From a virus: a stretch of 37,754 nucleotides of DNA. Below are positions 4,633 through 7,384 of the stretch, one piece after another. The DNA lies in the IMG/VR virus record IMGVR_UViG_3300046346_000048; one strand, given 5' to 3'. Numbering within the stretch: position 1 is the first letter of the stretch; the number at the start of each line of letters is the position of its first letter. Under the pieces are notes generated by a model. The model was not told the origin of the DNA and did no database searches. It worked only from the letters and a program-made list of their open reading frames with translations. The translations under genes and the position numbers were made by a program.

Positions 4633-4719
4633 AAATTTGTCCCTTTATAGCGTTGAAAATTCTCTCCGCACGGACTCAACGCCCTCCGGCGGCAGTATGA
4701 CTTGGGCAGTCTTCATATG

Positions 4720-4739
4720 TGGGACAAATGGGGTGATTT
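4720..4739 (-). promoter_or_regulatory. Conserved late-gene motif, copy A (minus strand AAATCACCCCATTTGTCCCA)
   Basis: The 20-nt string tgggacaaatggggtgattt is identical at 10988-11007. A related copy is at 30807-30826. All three lie in minus-strand intergenic positions upstream of structural ORFs. Confidence 0.5.
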
Positions 4740-4741
4740 GG

Positions 4742-4766
4742 AGCTAGCTAGAGAACCCAGCTAGCT
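4742..4766 (-). terminator. Stem-loop starting 7 nt after the capsid stop codon (possible attenuator, terminator or mRNA stabiliser)
   Basis: Two copies of the self-complementary octamer AGCTAGCT (4742-4749 and 4759-4766) are separated by 9 nt, giving an 8-bp stem. No U-tract follows, so intrinsic termination is uncertain. Confidence 0.35.
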
Positions 4767-4772
4767 TATTTA

Positions 4773-5090
4773 CTACGCAGATAAGAGAACGTTCATGTTC
4801 CAACCTGGGGCACTGTTTATTACGTTCCCGTAATAAGCCAGCCTGACCTCAAGAGCGTCCGCATTTCCAACTCTTAAGCCTTCCAACCCCTCCATGCCGT
4901 AGGTCAGAATGTGCGGTGCTTTTCCAAGTGTACGCAGCTTCCATGTATCCATAGTCAAACACCATGCTGTTTGCGGTTGGCATGAACGATCCGCAACAAC
5001 TGGAATTTTTCCATAAGCACTGTGGAAATGAATAGCTTCGAAAGCTACTTCAACTTCATCATGCTCAAGCATGACATATTGAACTTTTGC
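4773..5090 (-). CDS. Major capsid protein, exon 3 (105 codons plus stop)
   Basis: The frame of the 99-aa ORF (4773-5072) is open upstream to 5123. Intron 2 ends in G at 5091, and exon 3 then reads AKVQYVMLEHDEVEVAFEAIHFHSAYGKIPVVADRS... This is a typical capsid C-terminal pattern (G.iPVv.s) and is in frame with exon 2. Confidence 0.75.
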   Translation of the reverse strand, partial: AKVQYVMLEHDEVEVAFEAIHFHSAYGKIPVVADRSCQPQTAWCLTMDTWKLRTLGKAPHILTYGMEGLEGLRVGNADALEVRLAYYGNVINSAPGWNMNVLLSA

Positions 5091-5291
5091 CGTTTTGTTA
5101 CTCCACCTTTCGGTGTGGCCTACTCACCTCTTCGGGCTTCGGCTCTCGGATTTTATTTATTGTCCGAGTTCAGACTATCGCATCCCTTTCGGGTCTTCTC
5201 ACTTAGTCGTTCACGCTGCTTTCGCTTGCGCCCTGTCAGCCTGTCGGCCTTCCAAGTCAATCAGAGAAGATTTAGACTGGGCACAAAGTTT
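5091..5291 (-). ncRNA. Group I-like self-splicing intron 2 in the capsid gene (201 nt, no ORF)
   Basis: Paralogue of 6093-6306. The 5' exon ACUGGGU pairs with intron GCCCAGU (5276-5282), with a U:G wobble at the junction. The intron ends in G. Intron AACUUU pairs with 3' exon AAAGUU (P10). There are several GNRA-capped hairpins. Removing the intron joins ...STLVNELG to AKVQYVML... in frame. Confidence 0.8.
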
Positions 5292-6092
5292 ACCCAGTTC
5301 GTTCACAAGAGTTGAGTAACTTAGAAAGTCGATCACGATAAGATCGCAGTCTGCACCCTCTCGGTTTGCAAATGCCAAGGCATTCGTTAGACCTTCGGAG
5401 ATACTTTGAGATGAAGCATTATAGCGAAGCCCTGCTAAACGAGTAGGATCTGCACTACGATTTACTCCCCAGAAATTGTCTGTAGTTGGAGGATCTACAG
5501 AAGGAACCCATGCAGCCAAACCTGAAAGGCCGAGCATACCAGCAATAGTAGAGCTTCCACCAATACCGATATCACCCAAAACTTGTAGGTAGTCACTAGC
5601 AACCCATGATGATTGTGGGGCACCTTGTACAACCGTACCAGAGATTGCACCCGTACCTCGATTTACTGAAGTGATTTGAATTGCATCAATAGTACCTGGT
5701 GTATTTTGTAATGCTGCACCACCATCTGTTGTAGATGCTTGCATTGTCATGCCTACCTCAAACTGCACTACAGATTGAGGATTAAGCAATGTAAAGCTAA
5801 GCGTAGGCGCAACATACGTAACACCTGCTGCTGAGATTTGCCCACGTGATGCAGTCCCACCGTAGAACAACTCGAATGCCATGTTGTTACTAAGGTTGCG
5901 GAAGCCGTTGTCTAGTGTACGAGATGCTTCATCAACAAATGCACCTGCATTACTTTTGGTTTGTTCCATAAGTAAATTGGTAATTGTTATGAGCTGGTAA
6001 TCCTGAATCGCATACACAAAGTAACTTACAACATCACTTGCTGTTTGCTGATTCTGAGCATTCGCAAATGTGTGACTTCGACCTTGTGGATT
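5292..6092 (-). CDS. Major capsid protein, exon 2 (267 codons)
   Basis: This is the core of the 294-aa ORF 5211-6095. The apparent ATG at 6095-6093 is the last 3 nt of intron 1. The apparent C-terminal tail KLCAQSKSSLIDLEGRQADRAQAKAA is a translation of intron 2. The gene follows portal and scaffold genes. Confidence 0.75.
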
Positions 6093-6306
6093 CATTTTGT
6101 TACTCCACCTTTCGGTGTGACCTACTCACCTCTTCGGGCTTCGGCTCTACCACTTCTTTTGTTATATGGTAGTTCAGACTGTCGCATACTCTTTCGAGCC
6201 CCTCTCACTCAGTCGTTCACCGTGCTTTTGCTTCGGCCCTGTCACCTGCTTCCAGGCTTCCAAGTCAATCAGAGAAGGTTTTAATACGGCAATTCCATAA
6301 GGTTTA
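6093..6306 (-). ncRNA. Group I-like self-splicing intron 1 in the capsid gene (214 nt, no ORF)
   Basis: The 5' exon UACGGU pairs with intron GCCGUA (6285-6290), with a U:G wobble at the junction. The intron ends ...AACAAAAUG, so the terminal nucleotide is G. Intron UGGAAUU pairs with 3' exon AAUCCA (P10, with one bulge). Removing the intron joins ...KYIPVPLEYG to NPQGRSHTFANAQ... in frame. Confidence 0.8.
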
Positions 6307-6336
6307 ACCGTACTCTAATGGGACGGGAATATACTT
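6307..6336 (-). CDS. Major capsid protein, exon 1b (KYIPVPLEYG)
   Basis: A short open stretch with no start codon, in the +2 frame relative to exon 1a. It ends exactly at the P1-defined 5' splice site of intron 1. Confidence 0.6.
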
Positions 6337-6377
6337 CCCTGCACAAAATCACATTAGATGATGGGTCTGCTATTTAA
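6337..6377 (-). other. Non-translatable gap inside capsid exon 1 (candidate ribosomal bypass gap or mini-intervening sequence)
   Basis: The exon 1a frame stops at TAA 6356-6354. The exon 1b frame is closed by TAG 6372-6370 and TGA 6351-6349. A 7-bp hairpin, GAUGGGU (6383-6377) with ACCCAUC (6366-6360), contains Gly codon GGG 6380-6378. An identical GGG lies at 6339-6337. Confidence 0.5.
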
Positions 6378-6527
6378 CCCATCTGGACTCTCGTTTTTTG
6401 GAATCATTGCTAGCAACGGATTCTTGTTGTAGACAATGTTCTTCATGTAGTCTTTGTCATCCACATACAATTCTTTTAGAGCAGCAAGCTGATTGCTGCT
6501 ATTAGCATATTGCGGACTGATAGTCAT
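6378..6527 (-). CDS. Major capsid protein, exon 1a (50 codons, MTISPQYANSSNQLAALKELYVDDKDYMKNIVYNKNPLLAMIPKNESPDG)
   Basis: The ATG at 6527-6525 lies 5 nt after the scaffold gene stop. The full in-frame ORF is 59 aa, so it falls below the track cutoff. The sequence resembles capsid N-termini (..L.ELY......v.....Pl.a.i.k), judged from memory. Confidence 0.6.
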
Positions 6528-6532
6528 AAATT

Positions 6533-7384
6533 TTACCTTTTATAAGTTCCGTAATAGGCAGCTAAAGCCCTCGCTTTCCTACCCATTGGAACGGACGCAG
6601 TGTCTCTGTTTGTCAAAGTCCTCATGCCTTGAGGTTGACGTTGCTGCGTCTGCAAAGCGGCTTGAGGGTATAAACTTTGCATCTTTTTTACTTTTGCTAC
6701 TCGCTGAGCGTCTTTGAAGAGTTCATCTTCGACAAGTTTCATTGCCTCGGGCACATCAAGAACTTCTTTACGTTCTCTCCATGTCCTCTCAATGAGCTTA
6801 ACGACAGTAGGAACACTCCTTGTTTCCCGTACCAATTCAAACGCGTCGCTGCGGCTCAAATGATCTGCTTCTCTTCGCATTTCTGCTAAGACTTGCCTTT
6901 CGGCTAAAGCATCTTTCTCAACAAACTTCTGATCTACACCCTGTCTTAAAGCTTCAATTTCTGCTTTAAGCTTATGCACCTCATTGTTTTGTTGATTACT
7001 CATAACCGCTTGTGCAAGCTGATCATAAGTCACACCATTTTCAAGTAACACATTCAAAGGATCGGATTTGAGACGACTAAGCTCGATCATGCCTTCTTTG
7101 GGCGCATTCGCTAAAGCTTGTTCTCTTACAAGAAGTTCCTTCTGACGAATCTGAAGAGCTCTTCTTTCTTTTGCTATCCGAGCTATTTGAGGGTCAATAG
7201 GCTGTGTTGCTGCACGTTCCTGTTTGACTTCTGGTGTTACATTAGTGGGTTCAGTGGGGCGATATTCTTCAGGATTAGCATTTGTAATCATCTTTATAGA
7301 TTGCAAAGGATGATTTTGAGGTGCGGTTACTCCCTGTTGATTCATAGTAGGGAGTCCACTTGTAGGCATTGGAGATACTTTCAT
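6533..7384 (-). CDS. Scaffolding protein
   Basis: 283 aa, highly charged and Gln/Glu/Lys/Arg-rich with long predicted helical and coiled-coil stretches. It lies between the portal and capsid genes. Confidence 0.65.
   Translation of the reverse strand: MKVSPMPTSGLPTMNQQGVTAPQNHPLQSIKMITNANPEEYRPTEPTNVTPEVKQERAATQPIDPQIARIAKERRALQIRQKELLVREQALANAPKEGMIELSRLKSDPLNVLLENGVTYDQLAQAVMSNQQNNEVHKLKAEIEALRQGVDQKFVEKDALAERQVLAEMRREADHLSRSDAFELVRETRSVPTVVKLIERTWRERKEVLDVPEAMKLVEDELFKDAQRVAKVKKMQSLYPQAALQTQQRQPQGMRTLTNRDTASVPMGRKARALAAYYGTYKR

Follow-up and report, generated by a model that had tools for sequence, protein, structure and literature searches.

The window analyzed here is a 37,754-nucleotide stretch of viral DNA (IMG/VR virus record IMGVR_UViG_3300046346_000048) that carries a capsid gene divided by three intervening sequences (Table 1). 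Both strands were read, and the capsid exons, together with the 294-aa and 99-aa open reading frames (ORFs) found among them, all lie on the minus strand. A portal gene (PHROG 156) is located two genes upstream, and the capsid gene follows both this portal and a 283-aa ORF in the usual position of a scaffold gene. Specifically, joining 6527..6376, 6343..6307, 6092..5292, and 5090..4773 yields a coding sequence of 1308 nt and a 435-aa product that can be aligned over its full length, without a gap, to the uninterrupted homologues P0001, P0002, and P0003 at 89-90% identity. A first-pass annotation made from the sequence alone had proposed two introns and a spliced product of 432 aa. Both numbers need revision: a third intervening sequence, the 32-nt insert at 6375..6344, is also present, and the product reaches 435 aa once all junctions are set.

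Table 1. Features of the interrupted capsid gene and of intron 2, in window positions
Feature	Position	Strand	Description
Exon 1	6376..6527	-	MTISPQ...NESPDG plus the first two bases of a Phe codon
32-nt core-less insert	6344..6375	-	AAAUAGCAGACCCAUCAUCUAAUGUGAUUUUG
Mini-exon, 37 nt	6307..6343	-	Encodes (F)AGKYIPVPLEYG; part of the predicted spliced product
Intron 1, 214 nt	6093..6306	-	Sibling group I intron; P1 ACGGU/GCCGU; 3' end AAAAUG
Exon 3	5292..6092	-	NPQGRS...STLVNELG, 267 codons
Intron 2, 201 nt	5091..5291	-	Group I, without an ORF of its own; in-frame excision, covariance model match, MFE fold
Exon 4 (last)	4773..5090	-	AKVQYVMLEHDE...LLSA plus stop codon
Predicted spliced RNA join at intron 2			GAACUGGGU joined to GCAAAAGUU
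P1 5' strand, ACUGGGU	5292..5298	-	Last 7 nt of exon 3; U5292 precedes the 5' splice site
Internal guide sequence, GCCCAGU (P1 3' strand)	5276..5282	-	G5282 pairs with U5292
P3 5' strand, UCUUCUC	5264..5270	-	Pairs with GAGAAGA 5200-5194; 7/7 pairs covary in the family
P4	5232..5256	-	CUUG 5256-5253 with CAGG 5235-5232; encloses P5
P5	inside P4	-	GGCC 5249-5246 with GGCU 5241-5238, loop GACA
P6 and P6a	5213..5231	-	GCGC 5231-5228 with GCGU 5216-5213, plus P6a (GC/GC, GAAA loop)
P7 5' strand	5204..5210	-	A5210, bulged C5209, GACUA 5208-5204
P3 3' strand, GAGAAGA	5194..5200	-	Between the two P7 strands
P8	5184..5193	-	CCC, GAAA loop, GGG; 99.6% of cells pair; 4/4 pairs covary
J8/7 and P7 3' strand	5172..5183	-	AUGCGA 5183-5178 and UAGUC 5177-5173, plus U5172
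P9	5145..5168	-	CUCGGA with UCCGAG; 6/6 pairs covary
Peripheral 3' domain	5104..5143	-	P9.1/9.1a (5143-5118); P9.2 CACC, GAAA loop, GGUG (5115-5104)
Terminal G (omega-G)	5091	-	End of conserved tail AGUAACAAAACG

Deletion of intron 2, the 201 nt from 5291 to 5091 on the minus strand, joins GAA CUG GGU to GCA AAA GUU in frame, so that ...STLVNELG continues into AKVQYVMLEHDE... at the protein level. A protein search with the capsid sequence in its first joined form yielded more than 2,400 relatives, from metagenomes. The best 120 of these are nearly all uninterrupted 435-aa proteins that share 83-88% identity with that query, and more than 100 uninterrupted homologues carry exactly the joined sequence at the junction, again gap-free. 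When ten uninterrupted homologues were aligned, the stretch ...SYSTL[IV]NELGAKVQYV[QM]LEHDEVEVAFEAIHFHSAYGK... proved invariant or almost invariant, and the joined sequence fits the NELG/AKVQYV block with no gap and no missing or duplicated residue. This in-frame join had been predicted in the first-pass annotation, which also named the test of whether the junction falls in a continuous conserved block. The prediction holds in both respects, as the reading frame is restored, homologues match across the junction, and nothing in the block is lost or doubled.

The two ORFs that an automated gene call would report at this locus are readily placed with respect to these junctions. The 294-aa ORF spans 6095..5211, and its last 26 codons, KLCAQSKSSLIDLEGRQADRAQAKAA (5291..5214), fall within intron 2, in line with the earlier proposal that its tail is encoded by a structured element. 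At its other end, the start ATG (6095-6093) consists of the final three bases of intron 1 (...AACAAAAUG), and the GGUGGAG that precedes it is Shine-Dalgarno-like but part of P9.2. This ATG therefore only resembles a start: it marks a false beginning of a gene or, possibly, an internal start that is used while the RNA is unspliced. Intron 1 itself (about 6306..6093) is 81% identical to intron 2. The 99-aa ORF opens with an ATG at 5072, its frame remains open back to 5090 (AKVQYV...), six codons earlier, and no Shine-Dalgarno sequence stands at a suitable spacing before the ATG, as expected from the earlier remark that this ORF has no ribosome-binding site of its own. Between intron 1 and exon 1, where homologues read KNESPDG-FAGKYIPVPLEYG-NPQGR, the window encodes AGKYIPVPLEYG in the mini-exon at 6343..6307, which in a tblastn search is 100% identical to residues 52-63 of P0003. 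Between the exons, a scan detected neither promoter-like sites nor, on the minus (coding) strand, terminators. Codon differences in exon 1 are predominantly synonymous (184 synonymous versus 48 non-synonymous), and by this measure the exon is under purifying selection.

With respect to the identity of the host protein, AlphaFold2 supplied with a shallow set of 24 sequences (≥85% identical) gave an unusable model with a pLDDT of 38. After relatives from a library clustered at 50% identity were added, the model of the close homologue P0001 reached a pLDDT of 90.5. In a Foldseek search this model matched the capsids of SU10, Pa223, A-1(L), and HK97, the best match in the PDB being the SU10 capsid (7z48_F, E = 8e-10). 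The Pfam family SU10_MCP matches 39 of 56 diverse relatives gathered from the same 50%-identity library (best E = 8e-13); the window's own protein scores 16.2 bits against it, below the cut-off of 24.1. No match was returned by a PHROGs search with the spliced protein and P0003, by a profile search of PDB sequences, or by tblastn of the capsid against 50,697 GenBank phage records. The gene product is an HK97-fold major capsid protein, and the 99-aa ORF, which had been read as a capsid C-terminus, is the end of this same protein. The phage lineage appears to be uncultured; its contigs are about 36-40 kb and carry a portal, the SU10-like capsid, a terminase, a DNA methylase, and a sigma-like protein.

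The RNA of intron 2 folds in the helix order P1, P3, P4, P5, P6/6a, P7 5' strand, P3 3' strand, P8, P7 3' strand, P9, P9.1, and P9.2, with no P2. Such an order corresponds to the topology of group I introns (PMC3984707). The location of the P3 3' strand between the two strands of P7 makes P3/P7 a pseudoknot. This structure was derived by eye, checked on 14 copies, and then converted to a covariance model. Across 137 copies from viral metagenome contigs, counted with P7 written as a pseudoknot, 96.9% of cells form a standard pair and 36 of the 38 pairs, in nine helices, show compensatory changes, while none of 500 shuffles reached the observed pairing values. The alignment used for these pair counts was fitted to the model structure and leans towards it, a lean that is partly offset by a slid-partner control, in which displacing the partners by 1-3 columns left 38-45% of cells paired, and by independent fold predictions. 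In the latter, the MFE fold of the window sequence and an RNAalifold consensus computed from other contigs only recovered the same helices. Moreover, a covariance model built without the window scores 5129-5276 (minus strand) at 144.9 bits, with E = 7.6e-36. The compensatory changes include C-G to G-C replacements in the P6/P6a region. The P9.1/P9.2 domain, which is seen in MFE folds, likewise shows them in L187 (GGGG/CCCC and CGCA/UGCG) and in L123 (CGCC/GGCG).

A central feature of this fold is P7, which is formed by GUGAACGACUAAGUG and AUGCGAUAGUCUGAAC. Its G-C pair (G5208-C5173 in the window) is invariant in 121 of 121 copies and has the bulged C5209 beside it, and the pairs that flank it covary (A-U/G-C in 82/29 and 90/23 copies). 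By its arrangement, G5208-C5173 next to C5209 would constitute the guanosine pocket, and binding of guanosine at this site is predicted accordingly from the sequence pattern. The two P7 sequences also look like candidate R and S elements when set beside the consensus of these elements and their definition in PMC3984707. The description of the element as "group I-like" in the first-pass annotation can be made more definite, the core being a canonical group I core that is supported by covariation in 137 copies.

The 5' splice site is specified in the sequence by P1, in which exon bases ACUGGGU (5298-5292) pair with GCCCAGU (5282-5276) and close on a terminal U5292·G5282 wobble. This pairing had been noticed at the outset, and it is recovered in the MFE fold. 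Of 127 family copies, 63% have a P1 hairpin that spans 6 bp or more, is closed by U·G, and adjoins the core, as compared to 12% of shuffles. The 3' end, ...AACAAAACG, has G5091 as its last base, again as first reported. To place these bases in context, exon junctions were mapped by protein alignment for 36 inserts in 79 capsid loci, and for 34 of them the best-scoring junction puts U just ahead of the 5' splice site and ends the intron with G. The two that break this rule are alignment artifacts, and one of them, checked by hand, obeys it. A set of 80 further metagenome loci gave 29 insert rows, several of which repeat contigs of the first 79-locus set; 26 of these rows follow the U/G rule, and two of the three exceptions scored poorly.

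The situation at P10 is less clear. The pairing of AACUUU in the intron with AAAGUU in the 3' exon (6 bp), which the first-pass annotation took as P10, does exist in an offset register, but it is rivaled by a 5-bp pairing of UUUGU (5287-5283) with the 3' exon GCAAA in the canonical register at the splice site. In L187, the orthologous intron maintains neither pairing and keeps just 2 bp of P10. As judged from these pairings, P10 of intron 2 is weak or ambiguous.

Intron 2 is a member of a sizable family that Rfam overlooks. Rfam release 15, searched at the gathering score and, over 4700-6600, at E values up to 10, gave no match to group I introns (RF00028, Intron_gpI) and yielded chance matches only (for example, a group II D1-D4 fragment at 11.8 bits). 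Because the tests of group I architecture come out positively, we read this miss as a gap in the sensitivity of the model. The invariant 16-mer CTGATTGACTTGGAAG matched at least 120 IMG/VR contigs, nearly all of them true copies, and the covariance model identifies 137 copies; these come from 100 sources, and a single locus often holds two or three of them. Most copies were collected through this exact 16-mer in J3/4-P4, so that variation there is under-sampled. Among GenBank phages, blastn found the element in two records. In MW202674.1 it lies between two "P22 coat protein" fragments (L001, 16569-18084), and in Roseobacter phage CRP-118 (OR420741.1, L002, 34084-36157) between two "ribonucleotide reductase" fragments. 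The former record also annotates a "hypothetical protein" (UOF80274.1) within the intron. Phage group I introns are classically encountered in just this way, as structured inserts within conserved genes.

Host genes of the family other than the window capsid gene include those for class I/II ribonucleotide reductase, NrdD, P22-type coat protein, and Phage_capsid_4, and lone copies are present in further genes (e.g., L123 and L163). A relationship between the P22-type coat fragment of MW202674.1 and the window capsid was considered and rejected, as profile comparison gave a probability of 0.9%; the two capsid hosts of the intron accordingly belong to different families. Intron-split capsid, coat, and ribonucleotide reductase genes in many environmental phages are annotated as separate or hypothetical coding sequences, and a dedicated covariance model for this family, which Rfam misses, would repair many such gene calls. 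Two further observations concern larger members and possible relatives. Long ORF-like insertions in the loop of P6 or P8 are seen in L008, L009, L015, L018, L027, L041, L049, and others, and are candidate homing endonucleases. Introns of 600-900 nt at capsid aa 51-64 and 104-114 do not match the covariance model; they may form a related subfamily with a core beginning ...UAAAUCGGG.

Within the capsid gene, the occupancy of individual sites varies between genomes. The codon boundary that holds intron 2 (aa 330/331) is also occupied in L187, by an intron 89% identical to intron 2 with compensatory changes in P8, P9, P9.1, and P9.2, and the site is empty in L124, L125, and about 100 homologues. 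At this site the sequence is CTT GGC in alleles that lack the intron and CTG GGT in those that have it, and it is the latter that supplies the required U. In other contigs, introns 78-89% identical to intron 2 occupy aa 56, 62, 343, 355, 392, and 412 of the same gene, and each of these introns carries a guide sequence that matches its own exon. Over the capsid gene family as a whole (loci L123-L200 and L321-L400), at least 20 distinct insertion sites were found. The region from aa 30 to 65 is a hot spot, and up to four or five intervening sequences occur per gene (L187, L191). This distribution suggests recent movement to new sites that did not involve an intron-encoded endonuclease. Intron 2 contains no ORF, and a non-exhaustive scan covering 22 other ORFs of the window detected no endonuclease domain. 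As to the mode of movement, recombination between co-infecting phages, endonucleases encoded elsewhere, and reverse splicing are possible routes. The spread of one intron group across at least 20 capsid sites makes this gene a good system in which to study how ORF-less group I introns relocate.

Our preferred reading is that 5291..5091 (minus strand) is a compact group I intron, with neither a P2 nor an ORF, that lies within an HK97-fold capsid gene and is probably self-splicing, and we place the probability of this reading at about 0.92. The sequences themselves show the exact junction, a fold backed by covariation, membership of the family, and the presence or absence of the intron in different genomes. 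We infer catalysis by the RNA, its independence of helpers, and the timing of splicing. According to this model, the capsid pre-mRNA would be transcribed as a single unit, and intron 2 would fold into a P4-P6 domain and a P3-P7-P8-P9 domain that contains the P3/P7 pseudoknot. The last seven exon bases would pair with the guide GCCCAGU to form P1, which would then dock into the core. A free guanosine held in the P7 pocket (G5208-C5173, beside C5209) would attack after U5292, and G5091 would subsequently occupy the same pocket. In the final step, the freed 3'-OH of the exon would attack after G5091 and ligate GGU to GCA, with the 435-aa capsid protein resulting once intron 1 and the 32-nt insert had been removed as well.

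The alternative that comes closest to this model retains the group I ancestry of intron 2 and differs in that folding or catalysis would depend on a protein, from the phage or its host, or on the intron 1 core. A dependence of this type would fit an intron that is very small (201 nt), lacks P2, and has a thin periphery, and it would fit a transcript in which two near-identical cores are present and in which the same gene tolerates a core-less insert, a tolerance that implies some trans-acting activity. All core elements of intron 2 are nonetheless intact and under covariation constraint, and the single family copies in L123 and L163 stand alone in their genes. On balance, a requirement for a helper is unlikely.

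Considerably less probable is a broken gene, in which the element stays in the RNA, so that either this metagenomic genome is defective or the capsid protein is produced in two pieces. The insertions at no fewer than 20 sites nearly all obey the U/G splice-site rule, and the site of intron 2 is occupied in a diverged genome (L187) whose RNA helices are maintained by compensatory changes. All exons are under purifying selection (184 versus 48 in exon 1), and exon 4 begins with six conserved codons that precede any start codon or ribosome-binding site. In favor of a broken gene are the separate 294-aa and 99-aa ORFs given by ORF callers and the separate coding sequences annotated in GenBank records with the same element; we hold this outcome to be very improbable. 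Recoding, in which ribosomes bypass or frameshift over the 201 nt as in T4 gene 60, would account for two ORFs that are contiguous parts of one protein, a feature in no way specific to it, and has next to no probability given a gap four times that of gene 60 (where the bypass is 50 nt), the lack of matched take-off and landing codons, and a conserved ribozyme core that it would leave unexplained. Two other candidates were rejected outright, namely an intein, by an in-frame stop within the insert, and a pair of separate genes, by the conserved first codons of exon 4, which have neither a start codon nor a ribosome-binding site.

In addition to its two group I introns, the window capsid gene contains the insert at 6375..6344, which is too short to hold a ribozyme core. 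This insert nonetheless forms an 8-bp P1 (GAUGGGUU/GACCCAUC) that closes on U·G, with P10 (UGC/GCA) directly beside it; its last base is G, and its removal gives exactly DGFAGK. Ten distinct core-less inserts of 32-41 nt were identified at four sites of the capsid gene in ten contigs (the window, L191, L161, L162 (=L373), L192 (=L396), L186, L198, L365, L377, and L378). In all ten, P1 comprises 7-8 bp and includes the U·G, P10 (3-6 bp) is adjacent to it, and the final base is G. The mean P10 is longer in seven core-less inserts (4.9 bp) than in 27 full-size introns of the same gene (3.0 bp). Every one of them is positioned 30-81 nt upstream of a full-size intron. In the first 79 loci, core-less inserts are present in 7 of 22 loci with a full-size intron and in 0 of 57 loci without one (Fisher p ~6e-5). 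The orthologous inserts of L162 and L377 differ at about nine positions, as counted by eye, yet compensatory changes preserve both P1 and P10. In L200, L374, and L372, full-size introns are found at the sites of core-less inserts, and with these sites in common the core-less inserts look like internal-deletion derivatives.

The simplest model for these inserts is hypothetical and invokes excision by a sibling core. In the window, the core of intron 1, of intron 2, or of both could also remove the 32-nt insert, in cis on a tether or in trans, an activity to which we would give somewhat less than even odds. If true, this would represent a natural group I ribozyme that splices out a second, catalytically dead intron, and the resulting dependence between introns would be a step on the proposed path to a trans-acting splicing machinery. 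A search with the loose pattern GATGGGTT...GACCCATC for further relatives of the insert gave 120 matches that were all attributable to chance, none being in capsid context. An engineered counterpart exists in trans-excision-splicing, in which a group I core excises an internal stretch of a second RNA and ligates the sequences on either side (PMC2532722). The two differ in the location of the guide, which is in the excised segment here and in the ribozyme there, and the reaction proposed here is hypothetical. A literature search that covered few subscription journals returned nothing relevant on core-less or miniature group I introns in phages, which is weak evidence of novelty.

That small, ORF-less group I introns occur in essential phage genes, with several in one gene, is already established. 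The gene orf142 of Staphylococcus phage Twort contains three self-splicing group I introns (Landthaler & Shub 1999, as listed in PMC6669764). Twort and the window have in common several small, closely related group I introns in one protein-coding gene, short exons between them, and no endonuclease ORF. The window differs in its host gene, which encodes the major capsid protein of an uncultured podovirus-like phage, in that the core of its intron has no P2 and no extra helices seen between P3' and P8, and in that one of the three intervening sequences is core-less. Gut "Jug" jumbo phages have group I introns of ~206 nt, mostly ORF-less and many per lineage, which split the essential genes terL and nrdD, were found with subtype covariance models, and were supported as spliced by metatranscriptome reads in 37 of 76 predicted cases (PMC12880540). 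By description, intron 2 is much like these, at ~200 nt, ORF-less, and in an essential gene, whereas the window phage has a genome of ~37 kb and the Jug phages are jumbo phages. Lactobacillus phage JCL1032 is cited in the same PMC6669764 for group I introns in late genes (Riipinen & Alatossava 2004). The likeness lies in the gene setting, namely the late (structural/packaging) genes of a tailed phage, and the host and phage type differ.

The classical group I introns (T4 td, nrdB, and sunY, and the tRNA introns of Azoarcus and Anabaena) are reviewed in PMC3984707. Intron 2 shares with them P1 and an internal guide, a P7 predicted to bind G, the P4-P6 and P3-P9 domains, and sequences that look R/S-like, as well as a preference of its family for conserved sites such as the active-site region of ribonucleotide reductase. 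It differs from them in having no RF00028 match and no endonuclease ORF, and in a periphery made of P9.1/P9.2 and not of P2 or P5abc. The tRNA intron of Azoarcus, at 205 nt, is of comparable length. A P2-less ribozyme of ~200 nt holds interest as a compact module for splicing or for RNA circularization. The finding as a whole gains from the size of the family, its absence from Rfam, the spread of one intron group over many sites in a single capsid gene, and above all the core-less insert.

Two minor observations at capsid loci are worth recording. At 3064-3080 of L165, two overlapping tblastn segments jointly span 1306 nt (1305 + 1), which suggests a single-base frameshift due to sequencing error or recoding. 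In the window itself, a near-perfect palindrome, AAGCUAGCUGGGUUCUCUAGCUAGCU, occupies 4735-4772 (minus strand) directly after the capsid stop codons (TAG TAA). It went uncalled in the terminator scan because no U-run follows it, and it may act as an mRNA-stabilizing or processing hairpin.
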